Shown piece by piece: positions 5,295-62,196 of a stretch of DNA of 64,000 bases (its first letter is position 1; each line of letters starts with the position of its first letter). Under the pieces are notes generated by a model, which worked only from the letters and a program-made list of their open reading frames with translations, had not been told where the DNA came from and ran no database searches. The position numbers and the translations under genes were made by a program. Origin of the DNA: Candidatus Falkowbacteria bacterium RIFOXYA2_FULL_38_12 (GTDB lineage: Bacteria > Patescibacteriota > Patescibacteriia > XYB2-FULL-38-15); NCBI GenBank assembly GCA_001778095.1, contig MFGA01000006.1, forward strand, positions 6,169 to 70,168, in the 5' to 3' direction.

Positions 5295-5398
5295 GTCATT
5301 CTGAGCGGAGCGACCCCGCAAAAGGCGGGGCGCGTATGCGGGCTAGAAAAGAATATCGCTCGCATTCGCGAGAGATCCTTCACTGCGTTCAGGATGAC
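5295..5398. repeat. Hairpin repeat family A copy 1 (GTCATTCTGAGCGGAGCGA...TCAGGATGAC)
   Basis: Imperfect terminal inverted repeats, about 104 nt. Five near-identical copies elsewhere in the window. ORF-track ORF 5195..5383 is repeat-derived. Confidence 0.8.
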
Positions 5399-5568: not shown

Positions 5569-8500
5569 TTATTCCGCTGCGGGAGCTGATTCTGCCGGTG
5601 CTTCCGGGGCTGGGGCCGGCGCCTCTACTACTGGCGAAGGAGCTACTTCTTCCGACGCTTCTACCGCGGGTGCCTCTGGAGCTACGGGAGGAGCTTCTGC
5701 CGGAGGTTCGTCGCCATCGGTAGGAGCAGGCTCGACTGCCGGCGCTTCCGGTTCCGATTCAGCCGGGGCGGGAGATTCTGCTGGCGAGGCTTCGGCTGGA
5801 GGCGATTCAACACTTGGCGCCGGAGCCGGTTCTGCCTGAGGAGTAACGGGATCATCATAGCCACTGCGTCTGGCAATTACCAACCAATCAAAAGATGAAT
5901 TGGACATGCCGCCATTTAATTCTTTTATCTTAAAACTGGTTTGAGTTTTTTCCGCGATATAAATTCCGTTTCCTGCTTCCGTTAAAGTTATCATCACCTT
6001 AAGAGGTGTTTTGTCGGAAATATTTTTTACAAAATTTTCATCAACCTCACTTAAGTCAATTATCTTTTCTCCATTTTGCAGTTTTCCCGAACCGGAAAGA
6101 GTCAGCTCAACATCAGTAGAGGTAAGACCAAACATTTCTTTATCAAAACCGTTGTTAGTTAAATTAATTTTCAAAACTCCATTCTCGTCTATACTCCATC
6201 TATTATTAATGCCGGCAATTTTTTTGATATTTAAAATTGAAAAATTATTAGCATCCAAATCGCCGGTTAGTTTTTCCAAGGTGAGGACTTCGCCACTTCC
6301 CGGGTCGGTTTCACTGGACCAATCAATACTCACAAAAGCGATAATTGTTCCGGAAGGTTCATTGAAAGGTTCAAGGGCTAAACCAATATATGGAGCATGG
6401 TCTGCTTTCATAGCAACCCCGGGAGTGCTTGAGCTTGTTAATTTGTCTCCGCGAATAATTGGGCCGTTTTCATTGGAAATTTTAACGGGAACACGACCAG
6501 CAAGAGCGACGGGGTAAAGGTCGGGGAGACTTGATCTTCCAAGAGTCATACCAGGTTTTGTGGAAACTATTCCCATAACCGTATTATCGTTAGCTATTTT
6601 GGATTTTATTACTTTTTCATTATTATTTGGATCAATACTAACAACATCGCCCGGTTCTAAATTTTCAGAAGAAGAATAATTTTCGGCTAAGTCGATTTCG
6701 GTGATAGCTAGAGCTTCGGCATAGATAGTTCCAGCTGATGCGGCAGTAAGGCAGGTCGGTGTACCATCATCAACGCACAGTGATCCCTCTATAACAAGTT
6801 CATTCGGTGAATCGTCATTAACATCACCAGGATCATTGTAAGGAGTTCGGCCAATATTTGCGCGATTAGCATAAAGACCAAGTCCGCCGGTGAAATATCC
6901 GGCGTAGCCATTGCTAGAAGCGGTAGTAGAATATATACCATAATTAAGTTGATCGTTGTTTCCTGCATCAGTTGCCGTAAAATATCCCGCTGTTGCAGTT
7001 GCTCCTGGAGCGATAAAGTAGCCAGCCGTACCAGTACCAGAGGTAACCGAAGAGTAAATACCGTAATTAGTTCCAGCAGCTCCAGTAGCTTCCGTATAGA
7101 TGCCATAAGCAACTCCTGCACTTCCAGTTGCGGAAAATTTTGCTCCATAACCTGTATCAGAAGCCGAAGTTCCATATATGGCGTAATTGGTTCCAGTTGC
7201 TCCGGTTGCAACAGCATGAAGAGCATAAGTAGTCCCCCCAGATCCAGATGCAACAAAATATCCAGCTTTACCGTTGTCAGAATATGATCGAGCGGAAATA
7301 GCCAAAGAAATAGAATCAATATTGTCCGTATCTGTCGCTTCAAAAAATCCTGCAGTAGCATTACTACCACTGGCAACAAAATGCCCACCAACGCCGACGT
7401 GAGAAGCGTTAGAAACATTTATTCCGTAGTTAGTTCCTTCGTTAGCCGTGCTAGCAGCCTCAAAGCGTCCAGCAGTTCCGTTAAAAGAAGAAGTTTTTGC
7501 ATAAATACCGTAGTTTACTCCGTTTGTTGCATCTGTTTCTTCAAAATAACCTGCGTACCCGGTTGCTCCCGACGCAACAAAATATCCTCCGTAGCCAGAA
7601 GCATTTGAATTAACCGCATTTATTGTTCTTGTATCAGTTCCGGCGCCAAGAATATCAAGAGTATAATTATCTGTTGGAGATCTTCCTATTCCGATATGGT
7701 TTCCTGTCACTCCGTCAACATAGAGGGTTGTTCCGTCAACGATAAAATCGTCATCAACCGTGAGATTGTGCCCATCATGGATAGTTACGTTTCCTGCTGG
7801 ATGTAAATCAAGATCCCCCCCGCTTGTGGTGATGGAGTTTGTTCCGTAATTTGTTGTGGCTCCAGCCAAAAAGGCAGTGTCCGTGTAGACACCAAGGCCT
7901 CCCGTAAAATATCCGGAATAACCAGAGGCAGATGAAGTTAAGCCGTACACTCCGAAATTAGCTCCGTTTCCTGTTGCAGAGCCATATATTCCATAGTTTG
8001 CTCCTGTCCCCGAAGAAACACTGTAAATTCCGTAAGTCACTCCAGTTCCCGAAGCAGTAAAATATCCGGCAGTACCGGCCGCTGTTGTGTTCAAAGCATT
8101 AATCGTTCTTGTGTCCGCTGATGCTCCAGAAGTAACGTCAAGGGAATAGGTATTAGTTGGGTCGGTGTTTATTCCGATTCTTTCCGTAGTAGTATTAACA
8201 TAAAGAGTATTTCCATCTATAAGAAGATTATGAGCATTAGGAATAGTTACATCAGCAAAAGGGTGTAAATCAAGATTTGCCGCGCTTGTGGTGATGGAGT
8301 TTGCTCCGTAAGTCGTGGCATTCCCAGCAATAAAAGAAGTCTCGGCATAGACACTTCCGCCAACGCCAAGAAGGTCGGCGACGTAAGCATCGTTGCCGGA
8401 AAGAGTGAACCCGGCATTGGTTATACTTTCAGAACTTGCGCCAATCCAAAGATCATCATTGACATATAACCCTTTTCCTCCAGAAAAATATCCGGCGTAA

Positions 8501-9774
8501 CCGGCCGCAGAAGCTGTAATGCTATAAATACCATAATTAATACCAACGGCATCTGTTGCCGTAAAATACCCCGCATACCCAGTCGCCGAAGTATTAGATC
8601 CATACACACCATAAGTTGCTCCGGTAGCGCCAGTCTTTTCAAAATATCCTGCTGCCGCGCCGGCGGTGGTAGAAGCCGCAGTTCCGTAAACACCATAATT
8701 AGTCCCTGTCGCTCCGCTCGCATTAGCATAAATTCCATACGCCGCCGTAGTTCCCGAAGAAGCAAAGTATCCGGCATAACCCGAGGCTTGAGCATTTTCA
8801 GAATTGATTGTTCGGGAATCAGTTGAAACAACATCTAACCCATAAGACGGGGTGTCATTATTAATACCGACTCTATTATCTCCGGCGCTAACATAGAGAA
8901 CACTGGTATCTACAATAAAGTTATCGTCAGTAATAAAGACATCACCTCCGGCAGGGTTTAAAGTAAAATCAACCGCTCCGGTTGTTGTGATTGAACTTGT
9001 TCCATAAGTTGTGGCGTTGCCAGCAATAAAAGAGGTGTCGGTGTAAATAGTTCCTTCAACGCCAAGAGTGCCCGCGATAAAAGCGTCATCTCCATCCAAA
9101 GAAAATGCATTGCTAAGAGTCTCGGCATTGGCGCCTAAATATAGATTGCTATTAATATAAGCTGTTAAAGTTAAAGTATCCGTGTTAGCGTCGCCCAAAG
9201 ACCATGATCCGGCAACTGTTTCGTCTTGTGCTAGTCGGCCAAAGGCGGATTCATCCAAATCGTCAAGCATATCCGCGTTAAAAGAATATAAAGACGCGCC
9301 AATCCTTTTTCTTGGTGTCATTTCGGCGTCAGCTCCTACCGTAACTCCCAAAAAGTAAGCAGAAGCGGAAAAATTAATACTAATCGCGCAATCGCCAGAT
9401 TCCCCCAGAAGAGTGGAAAAAACTCCGTTGGAAATAGTAACGGATTTTGCGGATGGATTAAATGCCGCGCCACAAGCGTCACTTTCTCTCGCGCTCCAAA
9501 CAACATTTCCTCCGGCGGCGGCATCATAAATGGTGAAAATAATATTGTATGCTCCATCGGCAACCGGAACGCCGGAAGAATCTTGTAGTTTTCCTTGATA
9601 ATTTAATTCTTTATTAACCGCGGCCTTGGCCCATTGAGGCGACCATTGTTTTATCGCCGAAAGAGCAATTATTCCCGCGCTTATTAAAGACAAAACGCCC
9701 AAAATCAAAACCAAGAGAGTGAGGCTCCCCTTATCGCGATTGGTGTATTTGGTTTTTCTGTTTGGCAAGGTCAT
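5569..9774 (-). CDS. Giant secreted/surface repeat protein with Gly/Tyr-rich tandem repeats and Pro/Ala/Glu-rich C-terminal tail
   Basis: Probable start at the second Met (MTLPNRK, 9774), followed by a signal-anchor helix. About 40 degenerate repeats of the YG(I/V)Y...AGYF type. C-terminal about 90 aa are PAPEAPA-like. The first 21 codons of the track ORF (5569..9837) come from repeat family G. Confidence 0.7.
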   Translation of the reverse strand: MTLPNRKTKYTNRDKGSLTLLVLILGVLSLISAGIIALSAIKQWSPQWAKAAVNKELNYQGKLQDSSGVPVADGAYNIIFTIYDAAAGGNVVWSARESDACGAAFNPSAKSVTISNGVFSTLLGESGDCAISINFSASAYFLGVTVGADAEMTPRKRIGASLYSFNADMLDDLDESAFGRLAQDETVAGSWSLGDANTDTLTLTAYINSNLYLGANAETLSNAFSLDGDDAFIAGTLGVEGTIYTDTSFIAGNATTYGTSSITTTGAVDFTLNPAGGDVFITDDNFIVDTSVLYVSAGDNRVGINNDTPSYGLDVVSTDSRTINSENAQASGYAGYFASSGTTAAYGIYANASGATGTNYGVYGTAASTTAGAAAGYFEKTGATGATYGVYGSNTSATGYAGYFTATDAVGINYGIYSITASAAGYAGYFSGGKGLYVNDDLWIGASSESITNAGFTLSGNDAYVADLLGVGGSVYAETSFIAGNATTYGANSITTSAANLDLHPFADVTIPNAHNLLIDGNTLYVNTTTERIGINTDPTNTYSLDVTSGASADTRTINALNTTAAGTAGYFTASGTGVTYGIYSVSSGTGANYGIYGSATGNGANFGVYGLTSSASGYSGYFTGGLGVYTDTAFLAGATTNYGTNSITTSGGDLDLHPAGNVTIHDGHNLTVDDDFIVDGTTLYVDGVTGNHIGIGRSPTDNYTLDILGAGTDTRTINAVNSNASGYGGYFVASGATGYAGYFEETDATNGVNYGIYAKTSSFNGTAGRFEAASTANEGTNYGINVSNASHVGVGGHFVASGSNATAGFFEATDTDNIDSISLAISARSYSDNGKAGYFVASGSGGTTYALHAVATGATGTNYAIYGTSASDTGYGAKFSATGSAGVAYGIYTEATGAAGTNYGIYSSVTSGTGTAGYFIAPGATATAGYFTATDAGNNDQLNYGIYSTTASSNGYAGYFTGGLGLYANRANIGRTPYNDPGDVNDDSPNELVIEGSLCVDDGTPTCLTAASAGTIYAEALAITEIDLAENYSSSENLEPGDVVSIDPNNNEKVIKSKIANDNTVMGIVSTKPGMTLGRSSLPDLYPVALAGRVPVKISNENGPIIRGDKLTSSSTPGVAMKADHAPYIGLALEPFNEPSGTIIAFVSIDWSSETDPGSGEVLTLEKLTGDLDANNFSILNIKKIAGINNRWSIDENGVLKINLTNNGFDKEMFGLTSTDVELTLSGSGKLQNGEKIIDLSEVDENFVKNISDKTPLKVMITLTEAGNGIYIAEKTQTSFKIKELNGGMSNSSFDWLVIARRSGYDDPVTPQAEPAPAPSVESPPAEASPAESPAPAESEPEAPAVEPAPTDGDEPPAEAPPVAPEAPAVEASEEVAPSPVVEAPAPAPEAPAESAPAAE

Positions 9775-9782
9775 AAAAAAGG

Positions 9783-9880
9783 ATTTTCCCCTCCCTTGAG
9801 GGGAGGGGTTAGGGGAGGGTGATATTTGTAGAAACATTTCACCCCCACCTAGCCTCCCCCATCAAGGGGGAGGAATGATA
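9783..9880. repeat. Repeat family G copy 1 (palindromic G/C-rich element, arms CACCCTCCCCTAACCCCTCCCATCAAGGGAGGGG)
   Basis: Two about-35-bp inverted arms separated by about 14 nt. A full copy lies at 32050-32140 and a single arm inside uvrB. Confidence 0.7.
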
Positions 9881-9881
9881 T

Positions 9882-12998: not shown

Positions 12999-13010
12999 CG
13001 CTTTACTTTT

Positions 13011-13249
13011 AAAACTCTAAATCCGAAATCCTAAACTCTAAACAAATACTAATATCAAAAGCCCCCTCAATTTATCATCCCGAGCTTGTCGACCGCGTGT
13101 CGCTAAAGCTTCAGCGAGTGGCGCAGGGATCTCACGCCGTGGTTAAAGAAGTATTATGGGATTTCTCGACAAGCTCGAAATGACAGAAATAGTTTTTGAT
13201 TTTGTATTTTGGATTTGTTTAGGATTTGGTGCTTAGGATTTAGGATTTC
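13011..13249. repeat. Repeat family E copy 1 (arms AAATCCTAAACTCTAAACAAA / TTTGTTTAGGATTTGGTGCTTAGGATTTAGGATTT) with a family-C element nested inside
   Basis: Left arm 13011-13046, right arm 13201-13249. The interior carries family-C copy 13073-13195. Same arms at 20621-20759 and inside the 16S gene. Confidence 0.7.
13073..13195. repeat. Repeat family C copy 1 (TGTCATCCCGAGCTTGTCGA...TCGACAAGCTCGAAATGACA) carrying an inserted CGCTAAAGCT mini-hairpin module
   Basis: About-20-bp TIRs. Relative to copy 2 (48102-48180) it has a 33-nt insertion ccgcgtgtcgctaaagcttcagcgagtggcgca. Confidence 0.75.
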
Positions 13250-15050: not shown

Positions 15051-15089
15051 TTTTATGCAATTAAAGGTACATGGAGACTTGTTCTTTGA

Positions 15090-15218
15090 TAATCCTTTCT
15101 ACTGCAACTGGTAATTTTGGCTCCAAATTGTTCAAAGCTCGTTGAGGTATTACCAATATCTCTCCTCGCTTTTCACAATTTTCGCTCAAAATTACTGCGT
15201 TTCGTAACGAAAGATTAC
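15090..15218. repeat. Repeat family F copy 1 (about 150-bp TIR element AATCCTTTCTACTGCAAC...GAAAGATTA)
   Basis: Near-identical to 52951-53084. Related copies at 58763-58925, 61182-61218 (partial) and 62046-62196 (inverted). Confidence 0.7.
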
Positions 15219-17166: not shown

Positions 17167-17270
17167 GTCATTCTGAGCGGAGCGACCCCGCAAAAGGCGG
17201 AGCGCGTATGCGGGCTAGAAAAGAATATCGCTCGCATTCGCGAGAGATCCTTCACTGCGTTCAGGATGAC
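17167..17270. repeat. Hairpin repeat family A copy 3
   Basis: Near-identical to copy 1. Sits between the HTH gene stop and the proS start. Confidence 0.8.
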
Positions 17271-20606: not shown

Positions 20607-20620
20607 AGGGTTATAAATAA

Positions 20621-20759
20621 AAATCTAAATCCTAAATCTTAAACTCTAAACAAACTCTAATTTTCCAATATTCAAAATTTTAGACAATCGTATTGTTTTG
20701 GACATTTGGATTTTGAATTTTGGATTTGTTTAGGATTTGGTGCTTAGGATTTAGGATTT
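20621..20759. repeat. Repeat family E copy 2
   Basis: Same arms as 13011-13249 and the 16S insert. About 140 nt, forms a long hairpin. Confidence 0.75.
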
Positions 20760-20807
20760 ACAAAGTTTCTGCTATAATAGTAATAAATAATAACTAAAGC
20801 GTCAAAG

Positions 20808-21860: not shown

Positions 21861-21876
21861 TGAGTTTATTGACGAT

Positions 21877-21974
21877 GTCATTCTGAGCGGAGCGAAGAAT
21901 CTCCCGCGCGTGCGGGCTAGAAAAGAATATATTGCGGGCATTCGCCCGAGATCCTTCACTGCGTTCAGGATGAC
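21877..21974. repeat. Hairpin repeat family A copy 4 (short variant GAGCGGAGCGAAGAATCTCCCGCG)
   Basis: Matches copy 6 (39410-39507) closely. Confidence 0.8.
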
Positions 21975-24476: not shown

Positions 24477-24481
24477 AGAAA

Positions 24482-24580
24482 GTTAAAAGTGAAAAATGAA
24501 AAGTGCAAAGTTACGGTTAAAATTAAAATAATTTTTTACTTTAAATTTTAACTTTTCATTTTTCACCTTACACTTTTAAC
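24482..24580. repeat. Palindromic AAGTTAAAAGTGAAAAGT-type element (family H); right arm overlaps polA stop region
   Basis: Arms gttaaaagtgaaaaatgaaaagtgcaaagtta / taacttttcatttttcaccttacacttttaac. Same unit at 56621-56710 and inside uvrB, uvrC and trmD. Confidence 0.7.
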
Positions 24581-26301
24581 TGTTTTTTTAGTTCTCCCCA
24601 ACTATTTCCAACTTTGATCTCCGCGATAATCGGGACTTTTAGTTTTATAATTTTCTCCATAGTGTCTTTTACAAGCTTGGCGACTTTTTCCAAATCTTTT
24701 TCCGGCACTTCAAAAACCAATTCGTCGTGTACCTGTAGAATAATTTTAGAACGGGGGCTGACTTTGGGCAAATCTCGGTGAATTTTAATCATGGCCATTT
24801 TTATAATATCAGCCGCGGTTCCTTGGATGGGCATATTGATCGCCATTCTTTCCGCCTCGGCTTTGACCATCGGAATGGGTGAGAAAATTTCGGGCAAATA
24901 GCGTTTGCGACCGAAAATTGTTTCCACATATCCCAAATCGTAGGCCTTCTCTCTTGTTTCTCGCAAAAAATTGCTGACTCCTTCGTAAACTTCAAAATAT
25001 TTTTGGATAAATTCCCGAGCTTCGGTGATGGAAATTTCCGCGCTCTCGGCAAGGCCTTTGGCGCCCATGCCGTAAGTGACTCCGAAATTAATTGTTTTGG
25101 CCGCTCTCCTTATTTCCGGCGTAACATCTTTTAAATCAATTCCCCAAATTTTGGAAGCGGTTTGGCTGTGAATGTCTTCGCCATTTTTAAAAGCTCTGAT
25201 CATTTCCTCGTCATCAGCCAAAGAGGCGATAATTCTTAATTCAATATGAGCGTAATCGGCCGCGAGTATTTTTGTTCCCGCCGGCGCGATAAAAGCTTCC
25301 CGGATTACTTTTCCGAATTCTCCTTTGGTGGGAATATTTTGCAAGTTTGGATTAGAAGAAGAGAGGCGACCGGTAGAGGTTACTATTTGATTAAAGTCTG
25401 CATGGATTCGTCCGGTTTTTTTATCAATCAATTTTGGCAATGCTTCAAGATAAGTGGAGTTCAGTTTGGCAAGCTCGCGATATTGCAACATCTCTCCGGC
25501 AATCGGGTGAGCCTTTTTTAATTTTTGAAGGTCTCCGGCAGAAGTGGAGACGCCGGTTTTTCCCTTGCTTAATCCTTGAGTTTTTATTCCCAATTTTTCA
25601 AAAAGTATTTTTCTTAATTGAATAGGTGAATCAAGATTAAATTCCTCGCCGGCCATCTTATAAATTTTTTTGGCCAGTTCGTCTAAAATTATTGTTACTT
25701 TTTTTGACGCATTATTAAGAATAGCCGAGTTGATTTTTACTCCATTATTTTCAATCTCGGCCAAAACGGGTAAAAGGGGTAATTCAATTTCTTTAAAAAG
25801 TTTTAAGAGATTGACTTCTTCGAGTTCCGGCAAGAGCGCTTCTTTCAATTGCCAAATTATCATTGCGGACTGGCGCGAATACTCAAGAAGATCCTCCGAA
25901 GAGGCGTTTTTTTCGGGCAAAGGAAAATCTTTTTGCAGTTTTGTTGAGGCGAGTGTTTCTAAATTATAATTTCTAGCGCCGGGGTTTAAGAGATAAGAAG
26001 CGATAGCTGTATCAAAAGTGATTGACTGAACATTGATGCCATTTTGCGCAAGTAGTTTGATGCTTTGTTTCAAATCGTGTCCCCATTTTTCTATTTTCCT
26101 ATTTTCAAAAATAGGTTTTAGTTTGGCTAGGGATTTTTTATCAATCGGAAGATAAAAAGTTTCAGCGCCATTAAGGCAAAAGCTGATGCCAACGATTTTT
26201 TCGTCTGAAAAAGAAGAGTTAATATTAAAAACAAAAGCTCTTTCTTTGGCGAGCTTTTTTAAAAAATCGTTATATTCATTTTTGTCTTGGGTCGAAATCA
26301 T
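24568..26301 (-). CDS. polA: DNA polymerase I, polymerase (Klenow-like) portion lacking 5'-3' exonuclease domain
   Basis: 577 aa. Family A motifs RRAAKTINFGVTYGM and QVHDELVFE. Confidence 0.9.
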   Translation of the reverse strand: MISTQDKNEYNDFLKKLAKERAFVFNINSSFSDEKIVGISFCLNGAETFYLPIDKKSLAKLKPIFENRKIEKWGHDLKQSIKLLAQNGINVQSITFDTAIASYLLNPGARNYNLETLASTKLQKDFPLPEKNASSEDLLEYSRQSAMIIWQLKEALLPELEEVNLLKLFKEIELPLLPVLAEIENNGVKINSAILNNASKKVTIILDELAKKIYKMAGEEFNLDSPIQLRKILFEKLGIKTQGLSKGKTGVSTSAGDLQKLKKAHPIAGEMLQYRELAKLNSTYLEALPKLIDKKTGRIHADFNQIVTSTGRLSSSNPNLQNIPTKGEFGKVIREAFIAPAGTKILAADYAHIELRIIASLADDEEMIRAFKNGEDIHSQTASKIWGIDLKDVTPEIRRAAKTINFGVTYGMGAKGLAESAEISITEAREFIQKYFEVYEGVSNFLRETREKAYDLGYVETIFGRKRYLPEIFSPIPMVKAEAERMAINMPIQGTAADIIKMAMIKIHRDLPKVSPRSKIILQVHDELVFEVPEKDLEKVAKLVKDTMEKIIKLKVPIIAEIKVGNSWGELKKQLKV

Positions 26302-30202: not shown

Positions 30203-30230
30203 AGACAGTTAACTTTTAACATTTGACTTT

Positions 30231-30695
30231 ATGAACTTAAATAAAGCAATGATTATTGGTAATTTGACTCGGGATCCGGAAGTGAGAACAACTCCTTCGG
30301 GGCAAAGCGTGGCATCTTTCAGTATCGCGACCAGCCGTGTTTGGAAAAACGCCGAGGGACAAAAACAAGAAGCGGTTGAATATCACAACATTGTCGCTTG
30401 GGGTAAATTGGCGGAAATTTGCGGGCAATATTTAAACAAAGGAAAGAAAGTTTATGTTGAAGGCAGGTTGCAAACAAGAGATTGGCAAGGGCAAGATGGA
30501 GTAAAAAAGTATAGAACGGAAATTATTACGGAAAATATGATTATGTTGGATAAGGCGGGAGGCGCGACGGGCAATGCTACCGGCGGAACTTCTTACAGCC
30601 AACCTTCACGTCAGAATTCGCCGTCTTCCCAGCCGGTTGAAGAATCATTGCCGGAGGAAGAGGAAGAAATCAAAGTTGAAAATATTCCATTTTAG
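30231..30695 (+). CDS. ssb: Single-stranded DNA-binding protein
   Basis: OB fold with LTRDPEVR...HNIVAWGKLAE. Acidic C-terminal tail ending IPF. Confidence 0.9.
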   Translation: MNLNKAMIIGNLTRDPEVRTTPSGQSVASFSIATSRVWKNAEGQKQEAVEYHNIVAWGKLAEICGQYLNKGKKVYVEGRLQTRDWQGQDGVKKYRTEIITENMIMLDKAGGATGNATGGTSYSQPSRQNSPSSQPVEESLPEEEEEIKVENIPF

Positions 30696-32044: not shown

Positions 32045-32049
32045 AAATA

Positions 32050-32140
32050 TTATTCCTCCCCCTTGATGGGGGAGGCTAGGAGGGGGTGGTAAATAAAATC
32101 ACCCTCCCCTAACCCCTCCCATCAAGGGAGGGGAAAAACT
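32050..32140. repeat. Repeat family G copy 2 (full palindromic element)
   Basis: Inverted arms cctcccccttgatgggggaggctaggagggggtg / caccctcccctaacccctcccatcaagggagggg. Confidence 0.75.
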
Positions 32141-32792: not shown

Positions 32793-33240
32793 AGGAGGTT
32801 CTTTAGGAGGGTTTTTTTGCTCCCCAATAGCCCTCCTTCATCTCTCCTTTTTGCAGGGCACAGTCGAAGTGCCCGTGGACATATTCCCCTCCAGGCATTT
32901 TCCCCCTAAAAAATACAGTGTTCTCATTTTTTAGTCGAGAAATATTAAGGAGGACAAAAGTGCATTGCCCCCCTTCGAGCATTAAAAAAATCAGTCCCCC
33001 GTTACGGGGGATAAAGAACCGATAAATATTTTTCGGCCCCCCAATAATTTTCCTCATCGCGTATCGCCTCCTTTGAGATGAGTGTTTTATTTATACACTA
33101 AATTATGCCATCTAGTCAACGGAATATATTTGACCAACTGTTTAATTTTAGATAATATTGGATTATAAAACTGAATAAGAATATTTTTACTTTACCCCTA
33201 GAAGGATCATCTTTTGGGGATTTTTGGCATTTTTTTTGTT

Positions 33241-33425
33241 TGTCATTGCGAGCCCCGACTTTTTAGTCGGGGCGTGGCAATTCTCCCCCAGCTGTCATCC
33301 CCGCGCAGGCGGGGATCCACTCTTTGTAAAAAGTAGATTCCCGCCTGCGCGGGAATGACAATAAAGATAAGGGTAACGAAAAGCAGGGGATTGCTTCGCT
33401 ACACTTCGTTTCGCTCGCAATGACA
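33241..33425. repeat. Repeat family B copy 2 with a nested hairpin element (33293-33360)
   Basis: Same perfect 12-bp TIRs as 14211-14352. Interior carries TGTCATCCCCGCGCAGGCGGGGA...TCCCGCCTGCGCGGGAATGACA. The right TIR overlaps the first ATG of the uvrB ORF. Confidence 0.8.
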
Positions 33426-35527
33426 TGTTATTATATATGAAAAATAAATTCAAAATAAAATCAAAATTTAAACCCGCCGGAGACCAACCAAAGGCAATTG
33501 AGCAATTATTGGATGGTCTTAATAAAGGATATGATCATCAAACTCTTTTGGGCGTGACCGGGTCTGGTAAAACTTTTACCATGGCTAATGTTATTGCCAA
33601 ATACGCAAAGCCGGCTTTGGTTATTGCTCACAATAAAACCTTGGCGGCCCAACTTTGTAACGAGTTTCGCGAATTTTTTCCCGAGAACGCGGTTCATTAT
33701 TTTGTTTCTTATTACGATTATTATCAACCGGAAGCGTATTTGCCGAGGACGGATACTTATATTGAAAAAGAGGCGATGATAAATGATGAGATTGATCGTT
33801 TGCGCCACGCGGCAACGCAGTCGCTCCTTACTCGGCGCGATGTGATTATTGTCGCGTCGGTTTCTTGCATCTATGGTTTGGGCGCGCCGGAAACTTATGA
33901 AAAAATAGTTTTGCATCTTAAAGAAGGGGAGGCGATTAGGAGAGATATTTTTTTGAATCAACTGATAACAATGCAATTTAATCGGACGAATGTTAATCCC
34001 AAACGTGGGGAATTTCGTTTGCGGGGAGAGATTTTGGAAATAATGCCGGTTAACGAAGAAACTATTTACAGAATAGTTTTTGATAACGAAAAAATTAAAA
34101 ATATTATAGAGCTTGATCCGGTGACGAGAAAAATAAAAAAGGAAGAAAGAGAAATTTGGATTTATCCGGCAAAACATTTTGTTATTTTGGGACCGGATAG
34201 AATCAGGGCATTTCAAAATATAGAAAAAGAATTAAAAGAGAGGTTGGAATATTTTAATAAAACGGGAAAGTTGCTTGAGGCGGAAAGGTTGGAGCGTCGG
34301 ACAAACTATGATTTGGAAATGATGCGCGAGGTTGGGTATTGCCACAGCATTGAAAATTATTCCAGGCATTTGTCGGGGCGCCAGGCAGGAGATCCGCCGG
34401 ATACATTGTTGGATTATTTTTCACCCTCCCCTAACTCCTCCCGTCAAGGGAGGGGAAATAACAAAAAGGATTGGTTGATGTTTATAGATGAATCGCACGT
34501 TACTGTCCCGCAGATTTCCGGAATGTACGGAGGAGACGCTTCCCGAAAAAAATCTTTGATTGATTTTGGATTTCGTTTGCCCTCGGCGGCTGATAATCGC
34601 CCGTTGAAATTCAATGAATTTGAAGCGCGGACGCCCCAGACAATTTACACTTCGGCGACTCCCAGCGAGTATGAATTGGGGAAGAGTAAACAAGTTGTTG
34701 AGCAAATAATCAGGCCGACAGGACTGCTTGATCCGGAAATTATCGTTAGACCGATCACAGAGAAGTTAAAAATGAAAAATGAAAAGTTAAAAGTTGGCGG
34801 TGATATGGGGAATAAATCCCAAGTGGAAGATTTGATGGAAAGAATTATTGAGAGAGTAAAAAAGAAAGAAAGAATTTTAGTGACAACTCTTACAAAAAAA
34901 ATGGCCGAGGATTTATCGGATTATTTGGAAGAGAAAAAGTTTAAAGTCCGTTATATTCACAGCGAGGTAAAGACTTTGGACAGAATAAAAATTTTAACAG
35001 AATTCAGGCGGGGAGTTTTTGATATTTTGATTGGGGTTAATTTGCTCCGCGAAGGTTTGGATTTGCCGGAAGTGACGCTCGTTGCGATTTTGGATGCCGA
35101 CAAGGAAGGATTTTTACGCAGTGAGACATCTTTGATTCAGACAATCGGTCGCGCGGCGAGAAATGTTTTGGGGCAAGTCGTTCTCTATGCCGACAATATG
35201 ACCGGATCAATGGAGCGAGCAATAAAAGAAACAGAGCGAAGAAGAAAAATACAAGCGGAATATAATAAAAAGCACAATATTACGCCGAAGACAATCAAAA
35301 AAGCGATTAAAGATATTATGAAAGTGAAAAGTGTAGAGTTAAAAGTGAAAAGTTTGTTGGAGCTAGACATAGCGGGGGAGAAAGGTAAAAATATTGAGGA
35401 GATTATTAAAGAAAAAGAAAAGGAAATGAAGGAAGCGGCACAAAATTTGCAGTTTGAGTTGGCGGCGTTGTTGAGGGATGAGATTAGGGAGTTGAGACAT
35501 TCTACGAAAGTACAAAAGATCAGATAA
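33425..35527 (+). CDS. uvrB: Excinuclease ABC subunit B
   Basis: 700 aa. Helicase motifs [14 protein letters not shown], beta-hairpin, C-terminal UVR domain. True start may be Met5 (33437). Contains in-frame repeat-derived insertions (see findings). Confidence 0.9.
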
Positions 35528-36708: not shown

Positions 36709-39372
36709 ATGCAAGACAAAATAATCATCCACGGAGCGCGGGAACACAATTTGAAAAATATCAATCTTGAAATACCGAGAAACAAGATGACGGTTTTTAC
36801 GGGATTATCCGGTTCGGGAAAATCAAGCTTGGCTTTTGATACTATTTTTGCCGAAGGGCAGAGAAGATATGTTGAATCTTTGTCTGCCTACGCTCGGCAA
36901 TTTTTAGGGCAGATGAATAAACCAGATGTTGATGAAATTGAAGGGCTTTCTCCGGCGATTTCTATTGACCAAAAAGCACATAGCGCGAATCCTCGGTCAA
37001 CTGTGGCTACGATTACCGAAATTTATGATTATCTTAGAGTTTTGTTTGCGAGGATCGGCAAGCCTCATTGTCCGGTTTGCGGAAAAGAGATAAGAAAAAT
37101 GACGGTGGAGGAAATGGTGGATAGGGTATTGAAGAAAGTTGCCGAAAATCATCAGGCAAAAAATAATAAATTAAAGCCCGCATTCGCGGGAGATTCTTCG
37201 CTCGCTCAGAATGACATTGTTTTGGTTATGGCACCGGTGGTGAAGGGACGAAAAGGGGAATATTACCAATTGCTTTATGATTTATATAATGATGGATTTG
37301 CCGAAGTTCGGGTTAATGGAAAATTCAAAGAATTGAGAAATAAAATAATTTTGCCGAGATACAAGCAACACAATATTGATCTGGTGGTTGATAAAGTGAC
37401 TTTGGGTTGGCCAATAGAAAATAATAAAGGCTTAAGAGCGAGATTGGCCGAGGCGATTGAAACGGCTTTGAAATATGGCGGGGATATTGTTTCTATGATT
37501 TTGGATAATGGCGAAGAAATAGTGATGTCTTCAAAATTTTCCTGTCCGGAAGACAATTTTTCTTTTCCGGAAATTGAGCCACGTCTGTTTTCTTTTAATA
37601 GTCCTTATGGCGCTTGCGAAGCTTGTCATGGTCTTGGCACAAAATTTTTATTTTCTGAAGAAGTTTGTCCGGATTGCGAGGGGAATAGATTAAGGAAAGA
37701 AAGTTTGCACGTTTTGGTGGCCGGGAAAAATATTGTGGAAGTGACGGGAATGTCGATTGAAAATGCGCATAATTTTTTTTCAGAGCTGATGGGCAAAGAT
37801 CTTAAAACGTCTGCCCCTATTAAAGTTTCGGCGGACAAGGAAAAATTAAAACCAAGAATTATCCTAAGCGAGAATGATTTAGAGATCGGAAAAGCAATTT
37901 TCGCAGAAATACTGAACCGTCTGGGGTTTATGTTGGACGTCGGTTTGGGCTATTTAACTTTAAATAGAACCGCCGGGACTCTCTCGGGTGGGGAAGCGCA
38001 AAGGATTCGTCTCGCCTCGCAGGTTGGCTCAAAACTGGTCGGAGCTCTTTATATTTTGGATGAGCCGACAATCGGACTTCATCCCAAAGACAATGAAAAA
38101 TTATTAGCGACCTTGAGAAATATCAGGGACATTGGGAACACGGTCATTGTCGTGGAGCATGATCCGGAAACGATTTGGACGTCAGACTATCTGGTTGATA
38201 TTGGCCCGGGCGCGGGAAAGCACGGCGGGGAGATTGTGGCTGCCGGGCCAATGCCGGATGTCTTGGAAGATAAAAAATCTTTAACCGCGGCCTATCTTCG
38301 GGGAGATAAATTTATTAAAATTCCGGAGAAAAGAAGAAAAGTAGACGGAGAAAGCAAATATTTTTCTTCGGGACAATTAAAAATAGTCGGCGCGAACGAA
38401 AATAATTTAAAAAATATTGATGTTAGGATTCCCTTGAAGAGATTTGTCTGCGTGACCGGGGTTTCGGGATCGGGAAAAAGTACTTTGGTAAATGATATTT
38501 TATTGAAAGGTTTATCCAATAAGTTGAATCACACAAGCTATCAGGTAGGTAAGCATTCAAGAATTGAGGGGATGGAATATTTGGATAAAATTATTGAGAT
38601 TGATCAGTCGCCGATTGGAAGAACACCACGATCTAACCCGGCAACTTATACCGGATCATGGACAATGATTCGTGAGCTCTTTGCCTCTACTCCGGAAGCG
38701 CGAACTCGCGGTTATAAAGTGGGCAGATTTAGTTTTAATGTTCCTGGTGGCAGGTGTGAAAATTGCGAAGGAGCGGGATTAATAAAAGTGGAAATGCATT
38801 TTTTGCCGGCGGTTTATGTGCCCTGTGATGTTTGCAAGGGGACAAGATTTGATCGCGAAACTTTAGCGATTACCTATAAAGAAAAAAATATCCATGATAT
38901 TCTAAAAATGACGATTGAGGACGCCGAGGAATTTTTTAAGAATATTCCTTTGATAAAAGACAGAATGAAAATATTGCGCGAAGTTGGTTTGCAATATCTG
39001 ACTTTAGGACAAGCGGCGACAACTCTTTCCGGTGGGGAAGCGCAGAGAATAAAACTGGGTGCGGAGCTCGCTAAAAGATCAACCGGCCGGACGATTTATA
39101 TTTTGGATGAACCCACGGTCGGGCTTCATTATGCCGATGTGGAAAAACTTTTGGAAGTTTTGCATCGCCTTGTTAATTTAGGAAACACGGTGATTGTAAT
39201 TGAACATAATTTGGATTTTATTAAAACTGCCGATTGGATTATTGATTTGGGGCCCGACGGAGGCAATGCCGGAGGCGAGCTGATTACCGCCGGCACGCCG
39301 GAAGAAGTGGCAAGGATTGGGAAGTCATATACGGGGCAGTATTTGAAGAAAACTCTAAATTCGAAATCCTAG
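36709..39372 (+). CDS. uvrA: Excinuclease ABC subunit A
   Basis: 887 aa. Two ABC modules (GLSGSGKSSLAF, GVSGSGKSTLVN), zinc-finger Cys clusters, LSGGE signatures. Confidence 0.9.
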   Translation: MQDKIIIHGAREHNLKNINLEIPRNKMTVFTGLSGSGKSSLAFDTIFAEGQRRYVESLSAYARQFLGQMNKPDVDEIEGLSPAISIDQKAHSANPRSTVATITEIYDYLRVLFARIGKPHCPVCGKEIRKMTVEEMVDRVLKKVAENHQAKNNKLKPAFAGDSSLAQNDIVLVMAPVVKGRKGEYYQLLYDLYNDGFAEVRVNGKFKELRNKIILPRYKQHNIDLVVDKVTLGWPIENNKGLRARLAEAIETALKYGGDIVSMILDNGEEIVMSSKFSCPEDNFSFPEIEPRLFSFNSPYGACEACHGLGTKFLFSEEVCPDCEGNRLRKESLHVLVAGKNIVEVTGMSIENAHNFFSELMGKDLKTSAPIKVSADKEKLKPRIILSENDLEIGKAIFAEILNRLGFMLDVGLGYLTLNRTAGTLSGGEAQRIRLASQVGSKLVGALYILDEPTIGLHPKDNEKLLATLRNIRDIGNTVIVVEHDPETIWTSDYLVDIGPGAGKHGGEIVAAGPMPDVLEDKKSLTAAYLRGDKFIKIPEKRRKVDGESKYFSSGQLKIVGANENNLKNIDVRIPLKRFVCVTGVSGSGKSTLVNDILLKGLSNKLNHTSYQVGKHSRIEGMEYLDKIIEIDQSPIGRTPRSNPATYTGSWTMIRELFASTPEARTRGYKVGRFSFNVPGGRCENCEGAGLIKVEMHFLPAVYVPCDVCKGTRFDRETLAITYKEKNIHDILKMTIEDAEEFFKNIPLIKDRMKILREVGLQYLTLGQAATTLSGGEAQRIKLGAELAKRSTGRTIYILDEPTVGLHYADVEKLLEVLHRLVNLGNTVIVIEHNLDFIKTADWIIDLGPDGGNAGGELITAGTPEEVARIGKSYTGQYLKKTLNSKS

Positions 39373-39409: not shown

Positions 39410-39507
39410 GTCATTATGAGCGGAGCGAAGAATCTCCCGCGCATGCGGGCTAGAAAAGAATATATTGCGGGCATTCGCCCGAGATCCTTCACTTCGCTCA
39501 GGATGAC
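39410..39507. repeat. Hairpin repeat family A copy 6
   Basis: Short variant like copy 4. Confidence 0.8.
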
Positions 39508-39538: not shown

Positions 39539-40834
39539 ATGTCATTAAATATCAAAAACAAAATTAAATCTTTCCCTAAAACCCCCGGCGTTTATTTAAT
39601 GAAAAATAAAAATGGGGAGATTATTTATGTTGGAAAAGCCGGTTCGCTCAAAAATCGCGTGGCCAGTTATTTTAATCGTCCGCATGATATTAGAATAGAA
39701 AAAATGGTCAGCGAGATTAGTGACATTGATTACCAAATGACTCCGACAGTGATTGAAGCTTTGGTTTTGGAGGCGAACTTAATTAAAAAATATCTGCCGA
39801 AATATAATATCCGGGAAAAGGACGATAAGTCATTTCTTTACCTTGGTTTTTCTAAAGAAGTTTTTTCTCGCGTAATAATGTTACGCGGTCACGAGGTAGA
39901 GGAAGTGAAAAATGAGAAGTTAAAAGTGAAAAGTGATAATCAAAAATATAAAATCGGAAAGTTATTTGGTCCATATACGAGCGCCGGAGCGCTTAGAACC
40001 GCGCTTGATATTTTAAGGAAAATTTTTCCTTTCCGCGATTGTTTGGTTTTTCCCAAAAGACCGTGCTTGCAATATCAACTCGGCCATTGTGGAGCCCCTT
40101 GCGCCAATTTAATCAGCCAAAAAGAGTACACAAAAAATATTAATAACTTAAAATTATTTTTTGCAGGGAAAAAGGAAAAAATTATTAAAAAATTGAGTAA
40201 AGAAATGACCATAGCCAGCAAGAAGCAAGATTTTGAAACAGCGGGAAAAATAAGAAACCAAATTTTTGCTCTAAACCATATTCGCGATGTCGCTATGCTT
40301 AGAAAAGAAGAAGAAAAAAATATTGATTACGGGCGAGCCGGTGCAAAAAATATTTTTTATCGCATTGAGGGGTATGATATTTCAAATATCAGCGGAACCT
40401 CGGCGACGGGGAGTATGGTTGTTTTTCTAAACGGAGAGCCGGATAAAAATGAATATAGAAAATTTAGAATAAAGACAGTCGTCGGACCAAACGATACGGC
40501 AATGCTTAGGGAAGTTTTGTCGCGAAGACTCGAAAGAGCCGTTCGCGATTCTTACAATTGGCCGGCGCCGGATTTGATCCTGATTGATGGTGGCAAGGGG
40601 CAAGTGAATGTGGCAGAAGAAATTTTAAAGCAATATAAATTGAACATCCCGCTTGTTGGAGTGGCAAAGGGATATGATCGCAAGCAGGATCGCTTTGTCT
40701 ATGATGAAAAAAACATCAAGTTGGCTGATTTTATTGCGAATAATAAAAATTTATTGCTAAAAGTCCGCGATGAGGCACACAGATTTGCGGTCGGGTATCA
40801 TAAGTTTTTGAGAAAAAAGAGCTTGTTAAAATAG
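39539..40834 (+). CDS. uvrC: Excinuclease ABC subunit C (short form)
   Basis: 431 aa. N-terminal GIY-YIG (GVYLMKNKNGEIIYVGKAGSLKNRV), UVR domain, RNase H-like endonuclease domain. Lacks the C-terminal HhH pair. Confidence 0.85.
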   Translation: MSLNIKNKIKSFPKTPGVYLMKNKNGEIIYVGKAGSLKNRVASYFNRPHDIRIEKMVSEISDIDYQMTPTVIEALVLEANLIKKYLPKYNIREKDDKSFLYLGFSKEVFSRVIMLRGHEVEEVKNEKLKVKSDNQKYKIGKLFGPYTSAGALRTALDILRKIFPFRDCLVFPKRPCLQYQLGHCGAPCANLISQKEYTKNINNLKLFFAGKKEKIIKKLSKEMTIASKKQDFETAGKIRNQIFALNHIRDVAMLRKEEEKNIDYGRAGAKNIFYRIEGYDISNISGTSATGSMVVFLNGEPDKNEYRKFRIKTVVGPNDTAMLREVLSRRLERAVRDSYNWPAPDLILIDGGKGQVNVAEEILKQYKLNIPLVGVAKGYDRKQDRFVYDEKNIKLADFIANNKNLLLKVRDEAHRFAVGYHKFLRKKSLLK

Positions 40835-52936: not shown

Positions 52937-53095
52937 GACCTGTCACACAATAATCCTTTCTACTGCAACTTGTAATTTTGGCTCCAAATTGTTCAAAGCT
53001 CGTCGAGGTATTACCAATATCTCTCCTCGCTTTTCACAATTTTCGCCTAAAATTACTGCGTTTCGCTACGAAAGATTATTATGTGACAGGTCTAA
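52937..53095. repeat. Repeat family F copy 2 with extended about-25-bp TIRs (TAGACCTGTCACACAATAATCCTTTC)
   Basis: Outer TIR halves tagacctgtcacacaataatcctttc / gaaagattattatgtgacaggtcta. Confidence 0.8.
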
Positions 53096-53157: not shown

Positions 53158-53832
53158 ATGCTACAATTTGATATCATTACAATTTTTCCTGAAGTTTTCT
53201 CCGGTTATTTTAACGAGAGTATTATTGGTCGCGCGCAAAAAAATAATTTGATTAAAATAAATATTCATAATTTACGCGACTGGGCCGAGGATAAACATCA
53301 AAAAGTTGATGATAGCCCGTATGGCGGGGGACCGGGAATGGTCATAAAGATTGAACCAATCGCTAAGGCGATTAGTTCAATCTTTAAGTTAAAAATGAGA
53401 AATGAAAAGTTGAAAGTTATACTTTTTTCTGCCGGCGGAAAACAATTTGACAATACTGTCGCGTCGCGATTAGCGAAAAAATATGACCGTCTGATTTTGA
53501 TTTGCGGACATTATGAGGGCGTGGACGCGCGAATAAAAAAAGTTGTTAAAGATATGGGAATTGAATATTCCGAAATATCCATTGGCCAGTATGTTTTAAC
53601 CGGCGGTGAACTGCCGGCTATGGTTTTAGTGGATGCAGTGGCGCGCCAGGTGCAAGGTGTTTTGGGTAAAGAAGAATCTTTAGAAGAAAAACGGTTGGGG
53701 ATTGGAGTGCCGACTTATACTCGACCGGATATTTTCCATTTCAAGGATAAAAAATATGGGGTGCCTAAAGTTTTATTGTCAGGAAACCATAGAAAAATTG
53801 AGGAATGGAGAAAGCAAAAAAAAGAGGGTTAA
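53158..53832 (+). CDS. trmD: tRNA (guanine37-N1)-methyltransferase
   Basis: 224 aa. SPOUT knot motifs (GGGPGMV, CGHYEGVD). Contains an in-frame family-H repeat segment. Confidence 0.9.
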   Translation: MLQFDIITIFPEVFSGYFNESIIGRAQKNNLIKINIHNLRDWAEDKHQKVDDSPYGGGPGMVIKIEPIAKAISSIFKLKMRNEKLKVILFSAGGKQFDNTVASRLAKKYDRLILICGHYEGVDARIKKVVKDMGIEYSEISIGQYVLTGGELPAMVLVDAVARQVQGVLGKEESLEEKRLGIGVPTYTRPDIFHFKDKKYGVPKVLLSGNHRKIEEWRKQKKEG

Positions 53833-53924: not shown

Positions 53925-54099
53925 TAGAGCATATCCCCCAGAATGGGGAATTTTCTTTGACAACTTAAAGTGATAGAAATACCTCAATTCTTTAAATAAG
54001 AATAAATATAGTTATATATTGAGAGCTTGAACTCCGGTCTTCGGACCGGGTTGATTTTGTTCTTCTGAACAAAATTTAAGAGATTCAACACTTTCATTT

Positions 54100-55875
<1,776 letters not shown>

Positions 55876-56614: not shown

Positions 56615-56620
56615 TTTGAG

Positions 56621-56710
56621 AAGTTAAAAATGAAAAATGCAAAGTTAAAAGTTAATGAGTGAAAATTTTCACAATTCAAAAACTTTTAACTTTTAACTTT
56701 AGACTTTTAA
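56621..56710. repeat. Palindromic family-H element (AAGTTAAAAATGAAAAATGCAAAGTTAAAAGTTAA ... AACTTTTAACTTTTAACTTT)
   Basis: Inverted arms between tRNA-Phe and tRNA-Pro. Confidence 0.7.
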
Positions 56711-56715
56711 CTTTT

Positions 56716-58762: not shown

Positions 58763-58925
58763 AGACCCACCAAACAAGAATCCTTTCTACTGCAACTAGT
58801 AATTTTGGCTACAAATTTATAAAAGCTCCTCTGCTTATACTAATGTATAAACATCGTCGTTTTTCTAAATTTTTATCTCAAAATTACTGCGTTTCGTAAC
58901 GAAAGATTATTGTTTGATGGGTCTA
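58763..58925. repeat. Repeat family F copy 3 (TIRs TAGACCCACCAAACAAGAATCCTTTC / GAAAGATTATTGTTTGATGGGTCTA)
   Basis: Directly upstream of ftsK. Confidence 0.75.
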
Positions 58926-62045: not shown

Positions 62046-62196
62046 GACTTGTACTCTAATAATCTTTCGTTACGAAACGCAGTAATTTTAGGGTAAAAAT
62101 TTAGAAAAGCGACGATGTTTATATGATTAAATATAAGCGGAGGAGCTTTTATTAATTTTTAGCCAAAATTACTAGTTGCAGTAGAAAGAATTGTTA
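62046..62196. repeat. Repeat family F copy 5 (inverted orientation), ending at the recA upstream region
   Basis: ctaataatctttcgttacgaaacgcagtaatttt ... ccaaaattactagttgcagtagaaagaatt. Confidence 0.75.

Follow-up and report, generated by a model that had tools for sequence, protein, structure and literature searches.

Rickettsia palindromic elements (RPEs) are dispersed repeats of ~150 bp that lie in frame in unrelated housekeeping genes, with the whole palindrome being translated (Ogata et al. 2000, as described in PMC10969869). Here, we discuss a repeat that occupies similar positions but is built differently. It is found in a 64,000-nt stretch of the genome of Candidatus Falkowbacteria bacterium RIFOXYA2_FULL_38_12 (contig MFGA01000006.1), which we refer to in full as “the window”; the source organism is a tiny groundwater bacterium and a member of the Candidate Phyla Radiation (CPR; Patescibacteria). 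The repeat, “family H”, is made of 7-nt units in imperfect tandem, (AAAAGTK)n, where K is G or T, and it occurs both between genes and inside open reading frames (ORFs). We focus on uvrB, which contains two family-H stretches (sites 1 and 2). Site 1 is a recent gain that was probably copied from elsewhere in the genome, and we regard site 2 as an older, array-like stretch of the protein.

RPEs are the closest functional analog of family H, to the extent that the source cited above describes them. Both are short repeats located between genes and in frame in intact housekeeping genes, where they encode a fold-compatible peptide. An RPE, however, is a palindrome of ~150 bp, whereas the genic copy of family H is a single 36-nt arm made of tandem heptamers, forms no hairpin, and resides in a CPR host. 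The two are set side by side here by the description of RPEs, not by sequence.

Heptameric simple sequence repeats (SSRs) provide a second point of reference. The cyanobacterial short tandemly repeated repetitive (STRR) sequences and the GGGAATC repeat of Xanthomonas are described as intergenic, and the repeats in Xanthomonas and Nostoc are G-rich (PMC4692102). Family H resembles heptameric SSRs in having tandem 7-nt units that are mostly intergenic, in forming some convergent inverted pairs with stem-loop capacity, and in varying between close relatives; neither has a known function. Unlike these SSRs, family H is A-rich and imperfect, has near-identical dispersed copies in frame in essential genes, and has a related family in the 16S rRNA gene. 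A translated heptamer repeat is known from neuO, where a heptanucleotide variable-number tandem repeat lies in the coding region and full-length translation occurs when the copy number is divisible by three (PMC13001214). As in neuO, the family-H arrays in genes are translated 7-nt tandem repeats that yield a full-length protein in the right register only. The neuO repeat, however, is a long, perfect, hypervariable phase switch, whereas the family-H arrays are short and imperfect, with no length variation seen among the few strains sampled.

Two further groups of elements bear on family H. [quoted passage not shown] Family H differs from them in that each arm is built of tandem heptamers and not of one unique palindrome, and in that site 1 has no target-site duplication. 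Insertions in CPR rRNA genes were reportedly noted by Brown and co-workers in 2015. Like such insertions and intervening sequences, the repeats described here include extra sequence tolerated in variable loops of an essential molecule, in this case 16S rRNA; unlike a carrier of an intron or homing endonuclease, at least one 16S insert here is a member of a heptamer-palindrome family with further copies dispersed between genes. Searches of the literature collection used here for in-frame palindromic or heptanucleotide repeats in CPR/Patescibacteria found no specific report.

The 36-nt block in the UvrB hinge

The UvrB encoded in the window is complete, with the ResIII, UvrB_inter, Helicase_C, UvrB, and UVR domains all found by Pfam, and its sequence matches that of Candidatus Falkowbacteria bacterium RIFOXYB2_FULL_38_15 UvrB at 100% identity. 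Family-H sequence is present at both of the uvrB positions named in an initial annotation of this DNA, where it spans 34760-34795 and 35321-35353 (Table 1). The codons of site 1 are GAG AAG TTA AAA ATG AAA AAT GAA AAG TTA AAA GTT. In an alignment of 27 orthologs, about 12 proteins (78-80% identity) are short at this point, reading IVRPITPKN--KNEKSQVDDL. The empty site in two orthologs (L122 and L123) is ACG CCA AAA AAT TCT AGT GAA AAA TCT (T-PKNSSE-KS), and the filled site in the window is ACA-(36 nt)-GGC GGT GAT ATG GGG AAT-AAA TCC. The filled site is thus longer by a net 12 codons exactly, as long as the block matching one arm of a palindrome in a tRNA spacer (see below). The gain leaves the reading frame and the host gene intact, with all UvrB domains retained.

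The nearest relative (L001) has 88% nucleotide identity to the window over epmA-efp-uvrB and 93% identity at the protein level, and it lacks the site 1 block. An in-frame insertion had been proposed for site 1, and this is borne out by the gain of 12 codons relative to empty orthologs, by its absence from the closest relative, and by its near-identity to the palindrome arm. Together, these comparisons show a derived and recent gain of 36 nt. An assembly artifact was considered for the block and rejected as unlikely, because independent assemblies agree (P0001 and P0002 have an identical uvrB sequence) and the same gene continues on both flanks.

Table 1. Family-H sequences of the window and the uvrB gene that hosts two of them
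Feature	Position	Strand	Remarks
uvrB	33425..35527	+	700 aa; from the ORF list and Pfam; host of both sites and of one more in-frame repeat, unrelated to them
Site 1	34760..34795	+	In-frame block in uvrB; 36 nt, 12 codons, about five heptamers; GAGAAGTTAAAAATGAAAAATGAAAAGTTAAAAGTT
GGDMGN	34796..34813	+	Six codons after the site 1 block; occupies the place of the ancestral PKNSSE/PRNPGE linker
Site 2	35321..35353	+	Heptamer-like stretch of 11 residues in the linker that joins the UvrB domain to the UVR domain; AAAGTGAAAAGTGTAGAGTTAAAAGTGAAAAGT
uvrC array	39903..39936	+	EVKNEKLKVKS; in frame; Pfam GIY-YIG, UVR, UvrC_RNaseH
trmD array	53386..53418	+	KLKMRNEKLKV; in frame; sub-variant shared with site 1
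Palindrome between polA and holA	24477..24584	.	Gene identities from Pfam
Palindrome between tRNA-Phe and tRNA-Pro	56618..56715	.	Left arm (56618-56653) most closely related to site 1
Short degenerate copy between rpsF and ssb	30211..30231	-	Flanking genes by Pfam

The insert spans residues 446-463, directly before Helicase_C (Pfam 470-580), which places it in the hinge between the two RecA-like domains; the position “after the second helicase domain” given initially is wrong. The accompanying statement that the linker is much shorter in characterized UvrB holds, as a solved UvrB (9gy7_E) has a 19-residue gap here. In an AlphaFold model of moderate quality (mean predicted local distance difference test [pLDDT] score of 71), residues 446-462 have pLDDT < 50, consistent with a loop position, and the site 1 peptide is hydrophilic and falls in this low-confidence, loop-like part of the model. 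The longer internal segments with pLDDT < 50 are 334-346, 446-462, and 628-653. These correspond to both repeat-derived inserts of UvrB and to the linker region with site 2, suggesting that the inserts lie in disordered loops.

Among 105 UvrB orthologs that could be parsed, 69 have the basal linker of 9-11 residues at site 1, and the remaining 36 (34%) have inserts of 14-55 residues with many unrelated sequences. One ortholog with 63% identity has an H-like array at this position (EKCKMKNEKCKI). The uvrB of the nearest relative, although it lacks the 36-nt block, carries a complete composite palindrome of ~110 nt (GTCATTGCGAG...CTCGCAATGAC) in frame, two codons from the site 1 position. This palindrome belongs to a family different from family H, and the same family is found between genes in the window (33240-33290). 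Since the elements in the window and in the nearest relative lie two codons apart, a tolerant loop accounts for the hotspot better than a DNA target sequence does. The orthologs thus show site 1 to be a hotspot for insertions, and disorder is predicted for its loop.

UvrB contains a third in-frame repeat, from an unrelated G-rich family, at 34421-34458 (13 residues, codons ~333-345). It is 94.7% identical to the right arm of an intergenic palindrome at 32050-32138, and it is also found in the nearest relative, which is without that palindrome. The loop in question, DYF...DESH, has nothing inserted in about half of orthologs, and unrelated inserts in some others. Another copy of this palindrome (32045-32137; 85% identity), at 9784-9883, overlaps the annotated N-terminus of an ORF of 1422 aa on the reverse strand (5569..9837) without a Pfam match. 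Either translation truly begins farther downstream or it includes the repeat.

Family H and its other copies in genes

Tandem Repeats Finder (TRF) reports a period of 7 throughout, with 4.7-5.0 copies in each of the four genic arrays as well as in both family-H palindromes, and the arrays are imperfect, with 76-85% matches. The unit had first been described as an 18-mer, and this is corrected by the period-7 tandem structure; the 18-mer itself occurs 18 times in the window at ≤3 mismatches, compared with 0.32 expected. In all, the 64 kb contain two intergenic palindromes (i.e., four arms), four genic arrays, and one short degenerate copy. Family H is, in other words, a dispersed, multi-copy repeat of both intergenic regions and ORFs, with head-to-tail 7-nt copies as in heptameric SSRs. 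Among the TRF period-7 rows for the window with at least four copies, all 14 fall into two unit groups, AAAAGTK and AAATCCT-like, which would be unexpected if every array had arisen from a local seed.

Both of the intergenic palindromes reported at the outset exist (24479-24582 and 56618-56715). As RNA, the polA/holA palindrome folds far better than shuffled sequences (z = -6.8), as does the tRNA-Phe/tRNA-Pro spacer palindrome (-23.8 kcal/mol; z = -4.4). The final codons and stop of polA (KKQLKV*, 24568-24585) come from the right arm of the polA/holA palindrome. A scan for promoters and terminators around the tRNA spacer palindrome found nothing exceeding the shuffled expectation. The genic copies have no hairpin (fold z about 0); site 1 (z = 0.02) is a single 36-nt arm and not a palindrome of ~100-150 bp of the RPE type.

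The 36-mer of site 1 recurs in the tRNA spacer arm at 56618-56653 with one mismatch (35/36, 97.2%), compared with 0.00 such matches expected in the window; its identity to the trmD array is 93.9%, and that to an arm of the polA/holA palindrome is 90.9%. Site 1 and the spacer arm have in common a GAG that is not part of the repeat and the succession of unit variants (GTT, ATG, ATG, GTT, GTT), the ATG-ATG units being rare variants, and the similarity stops abruptly at both edges. The window has three copies of this sub-variant, and they have all ten variable positions in common. A gene pair in another genome provides independent support for copying between genes: a Falkowbacteria-like contig (L002) has imperfect AAAAGTC arrays both at site 1 of uvrB (1746-1797) and in a loop of uvrA (3733-3784), and these share ~56 nt at ~96% identity with sharp edges, both in frame (EKVKSQKSKVKI.SQNSKL).

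The reading frame of the arrays is narrowly constrained. Every arm has two sense frames with two to four stops, and the third is the one that the genes use. The unit gives TGA or TAA in one phase (K = G or T), so an array is open only with a three-periodic G, T, x pattern; when open, it encodes (KSEKLKV)n. Frame-selective survival, suggested initially as something to look for in the other frames, is therefore borne out, with one open sense frame per arm. Use of the same frame in all four genes was also considered as a separate line of evidence and was dropped, because the G/T unit pattern allows one open sense frame and the frame is thus forced. When the spacer palindrome is read on in the used frame, a TGA is reached within the loop, so the whole element would truncate UvrB. 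Antisense frames are more often open but code for Phe/Leu/Thr-rich peptides.

The other genic arrays are in uvrC, trmD, and site 2 of uvrB. At the uvrC array, the protein of the window is 8 aa longer than the orthologs of the two relatives with an empty site 1. The trmD array is 91.2% identical to the tRNA spacer arm. Many relatives have a basal state, KKNKKTK, at this loop of TrmD, and the window protein is 4 residues longer; the array is common to relatives at 88, 83, and 77% identity. No length polymorphism is seen among 12 contigs with trmD. The trmD copy is therefore old and the site 1 copy young, which fits a young copy made from a pre-existing one. The relative at 83% identity (P0123) has 10 further residues within the TrmD array, aligned as KLKVSSFTKATADKESEKLK, that may be a nested insertion. 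Directly upstream of the array, trmD has an 18-bp stem with a 4-nt loop and one internal mismatch (53345-53386; z = -5.2); the peptide encoded by the stem (KIEPIAKAISSI) is conserved in orthologs, so the palindrome may reflect codon choice rather than insertion. In another relative, the trmD neighborhood (L127, 12382-13855) has bAvd and reverse-transcriptase genes and looks like a diversity-generating retroelement, with no counterpart in the window.

Site 2 is a different case. Its codons are AAA GTG AAA AGT GTA GAG TTA AAA GTG AAA AGT, which TRF resolves into 4.7 copies with a period of 7, and the codon choice is strongly heptamer-like, with a probability of the codons given the peptide of about 1e-6 under genome usage. 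However, the linker has the same length as in orthologs (compared as IKDI-IGEETKTE-KVKS-ILDLD), site 2 is shared with the nearest relative apart from one synonymous difference, and the 3' KVKS is native in three other relatives (L122, L002, and L124), being encoded as AAA GTN AAA AGT in relatives without an array. In two of these (L002 and L124), the linker bears those genomes' own AAAAGTC variant. The initial annotation had proposed a second insertion here. With no change in length, presence in the sister lineage, and KVKS in relatives without an array, site 2 is not demonstrably an insertion, and we take it to be an older, array-like portion of a linker that is natively rich in Lys, partly ancestral, with no separate insertion that can be dated.

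Repeats of other families are also found in further genes of the window. An in-frame stretch of uvrA (37175-37217; ...KPAFAGDSSLAQNDI...) is a copy, at ~93% identity, of a repeat that lies between genes at 21875-21918 and 39410-39451. Each of the window's three excision-repair genes (uvrA, uvrB, and uvrC) thus bears repeat-derived segments. The 16S rRNA gene (54098-55874) is 1777 nt long, compared with a model of 1533 positions, and has two palindromic inserts of 90 and 189 nt. The first (~54178-54267) is a palindrome in the loop of helix 6. The second (~55325-55514) is a heptamer-array palindrome of the AAATCCT type, and the same family is intergenic at 13010-13248 and 20618-20760. In the nearest relative, a class II tRNA-synthetase-like gene (epmA/LysRS-like; L001 499-519, corresponding to position ~31435 of the window) has an extra 21 nt in frame (ATTTCAGATGTCAGATTTCAG) consisting of three units of another heptamer.

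Three further pairs of intergenic repeats of 100-135 nt lie upstream of genes and are unrelated to family H: 5295-5398 and 17167-17270 (99% identity), 15089-15217 and 52950-53078 (95%), and 58779-58911 and the reverse complement of 62058-62192 (91%). For a small genome, dispersed repeats are unusually abundant in the window.

Heptamer arrays beyond the window

A scan of 596 Gb of sequence, with one genome per species, for a 24-nt array pattern found at least 119 loci (L003-L121). The matches listed come from many CPR lineages, Bacteroidota (isolates included), Acidobacteriota, Nitrospirota, Planctomycetota, and others; those from Acidobacteriota include a metagenome-assembled genome (MAG) whose name indicates ~65% G+C. 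Among the 127 matches listed, 56 are outside long ORFs, several of them being hairpins with complementary arms; 54 are in long ORFs in the sense orientation (...KLKVKSEKLKV...); and 17 are antisense in long ORFs, several of which are probably spurious ORFs in G+C-rich DNA. In some ORFs, e.g., in L033, the antisense arrays encode LLTFNFSLLTF-type segments resembling signals or membrane anchors. Judging from the flanking peptides, the hosts of sense arrays appear to include PheT, LeuRS, IleRS, TsaD, GuaA, LepA, PolA, PrmC, and GrpE. A TrmD from Roizmanbacteria has an array at the same loop as TrmD of the window. Full in-frame palindromes are found, for example, in uvrB of the nearest relative and, as read from the locus sequence, in a gene that looks like lepA (L101). 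Viral contigs yielded 5 matches only, with no enrichment and no sign of a phage vector. A synthetic (KLKVKSE)6 protein query gave 4434 word-sharing candidates and 2 weakly significant matches, and is uninformative on prevalence.

Heptameric repeats are over-represented in bacteria for reasons that are unexplained, with polymerase slippage having been proposed (PMC4692102). In agreement with this published excess, TRF found 315 period-7 arrays in the 857 kb around the matches listed, compared with 9, 23, and 17 arrays for periods 6, 8, and 9. The period-7 units in these 857 kb are many and varied beyond the AAAAGTK unit selected by the scan. A separate scan of Joint Genome Institute (JGI) metagenomes for an exact 31-mer of the site 1 sub-variant gave two matches, in pheT and in a gene for a family 2 glycosyltransferase, both in frame.

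Copying, growth in place, and the meaning of the arrays

We propose that site 1 was copied from another genomic copy of family H and was then filtered by reading frame and by the tolerance of the loop; we give this a probability of roughly 0.6. Family H consists of dispersed, imperfect heptamer arrays, with the intergenic ones paired inversely into long hairpins. One 36-nt arm would have been copied recently from another genomic copy into the UvrB hinge loop, and there are three reasons why it might have been retained: (i) its length is divisible by three; (ii) the array's sole stop-free sense frame matches the register of uvrB; and (iii) the hydrophilic peptide, made of Lys, Leu, Val, Glu, and Asn, would sit in a disordered loop that tolerates many inserts. 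Full palindromes and other frames would introduce stops or Phe/Leu-rich peptides and be lost, which would leave genic copies as single arms in the sense orientation and in one frame.

The copying step is one that we infer, and there are three routes by which it may have occurred, which the data do not distinguish. First, a hairpin element may have been mobilized in trans, with subsequent loss of the second arm. Second, ectopic recombination or template switching may have been seeded by the A-rich Lys codons of the loop. Third, the block may have been introduced by templated repair. Because the A-rich Lys/Asn/Glu codons of the loop provide microhomology to the array, ectopic recombination or template switching is as plausible as trans-mobilization. 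RecA is present in the window, as identified by Pfam.

Several observations weigh against copying. Aligning the filled and empty sites reveals no target-site duplication or inverted flanks at site 1, the edges being ACA/GAG...GTT/GGC, and the genic copy has no terminal inverted repeat within it of the kind that a MITE has. No transposase or RAYT was found by a Pfam scan of ORFs of at least 110 aa in the window. With no duplication, inverted repeat, or transposase, there is no positive evidence for any particular mobility mechanism. The six codons that follow the block (GGDMGN) have the length of the ancestral linker but no similarity to it, and are left unexplained by the copied block; the window contains no second copy of these 18 nt (GGCGGTGATATGGGGAAT). 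In other lineages, the TrmD loop contains different heptamer-type peptides (KVKSQKSKVKS, KIKNQKSKIKN, and RIKNAELRIKK). The two exact 31-mer matches are in unrelated genes of unrelated genomes, neither of this lineage, suggesting that arrays can converge, since few positions are free once the frame is open; this tempers the argument for copying. Lastly, the survey of family H in the source genome covers the 64-kb window only.

The differing peptides of the TrmD loop and the bacterial excess of heptamers make growth in place a live alternative for some sites. Under this explanation, slippage on A-rich Lys/Asn/Glu codons extends an array in steps that keep the frame, and the similarity between loci is convergence imposed by the need for an open frame. 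The proposed role of slippage in the bacterial heptamer excess and the abundance of period-7 arrays around the matches listed are both consistent with it. The TrmD loop and site 2 of UvrB are natively Lys-rich, with AAA GTN AAA AGT as a possible seed, and both the differing heptamer-type peptides in the same loops of different lineages and the identical 31-mers in unrelated genomes are what such growth might produce. Nevertheless, we consider growth in place unlikely overall. Local slippage is expected to give copies that are unrelated across loci, whereas the imperfections of family H are common to loci, at 97% and 94% identity. In particular, the 35/36 match at site 1 extends to the non-repeat GAG and the rare variants and has sharp edges, with no counterpart in the sister lineage; the three sub-variant copies in one 64-kb window agree at every variable position; and the imperfect 56-nt arrays of uvrB and uvrA in the Falkowbacteria-like contig are ~96% identical. 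Moreover, the empty site (CCA AAA AAT TCT AGT GAA) has no array to expand, and the gain of 36 nt is no multiple of 21.

A second alternative, anticipated in the initial annotation as what could overturn the insertion reading, is that the Lys/Leu-rich segments are ancestral and that their nucleotide likeness to the palindromes follows from Lys/Leu codon usage. For site 2, it partly holds: as described above, there is no change in length and the sister lineage has the same stretch, and KVKS[IL]L[DE]LD occurs in several orthologs. For site 1, it fails. The block is missing in the nearest relative and in 69 of the 105 orthologs, and when the site 1 peptide was back-translated with the codon usage of the window, at least 35 of 36 matches to the spacer arm were obtained with P = 1.35e-4. 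The genic copies also use minority codons (AAG, 18%; TTA, 26%; GTG, 17%; AGT, 16%) exactly at the positions dictated by the heptamer. Codon bias is excluded as the cause of the site 1 identity, and even the codons of site 2 are improbable given their peptide (about 1e-6, as above), making the ancestral explanation as a whole improbable.

Least probable of all is that the arrays are functional, either as contingency loci that switch uvrA, uvrB, and uvrC by gain or loss of units, as in NeuO, or as selected peptide or RNA modules: the neuO precedent, the presence of repeat-derived segments in all three excision-repair genes of the window, and the retention of AGT for Ser in KVKS across four diverged lineages are in its favor, but the arrays are short and imperfect enough for slippage to be suppressed, they show no length polymorphism in independent uvrB assemblies or in the 12 trmD contigs (few strains having been sampled), the same arrays occur in many unrelated housekeeping genes, and the segments are predicted to be disordered.

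A broader proposal is more tentative. Many bacterial phyla may share a so far unrecognized, heptamer-specific process that writes and disperses 7-nt arrays and is a major source of lineage-specific peptide and rRNA insertions in CPR bacteria. Its products would be hairpins between genes and single arms in loops of essential proteins and rRNAs, and its breadth would reflect horizontal spread or a conserved enzymatic preference rather than chance.

The window documents what reads as Rickettsia-like colonization of essential CPR genes by an in-frame repeat, together with colonization of the 16S rRNA gene by a sister family. So far, in-frame “selfish” repeats in essential genes have been essentially one textbook case, that of RPEs. 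The same outcome is now seen in a CPR bacterium from other raw material, i.e., heptanucleotide arrays, and this ties in with the excess of bacterial heptamer arrays that has been noted since 2007 and is still unexplained. The case offers a specific event that can be dated, the 36-nt block found here but missing in a relative at 88% nucleotide identity, and a set of defined hotspots: the UvrB hinge, the DYF loop of UvrB, the TrmD loop, and the 16S loops. Three questions are now testable: how arrays are copied, why the unit has seven bases, and what share of the unusual additional sequence seen in proteins and rRNAs of CPR bacteria has this origin. Such segments make CPR proteins look more divergent than they otherwise would, and alignments and annotation can be misled by them.

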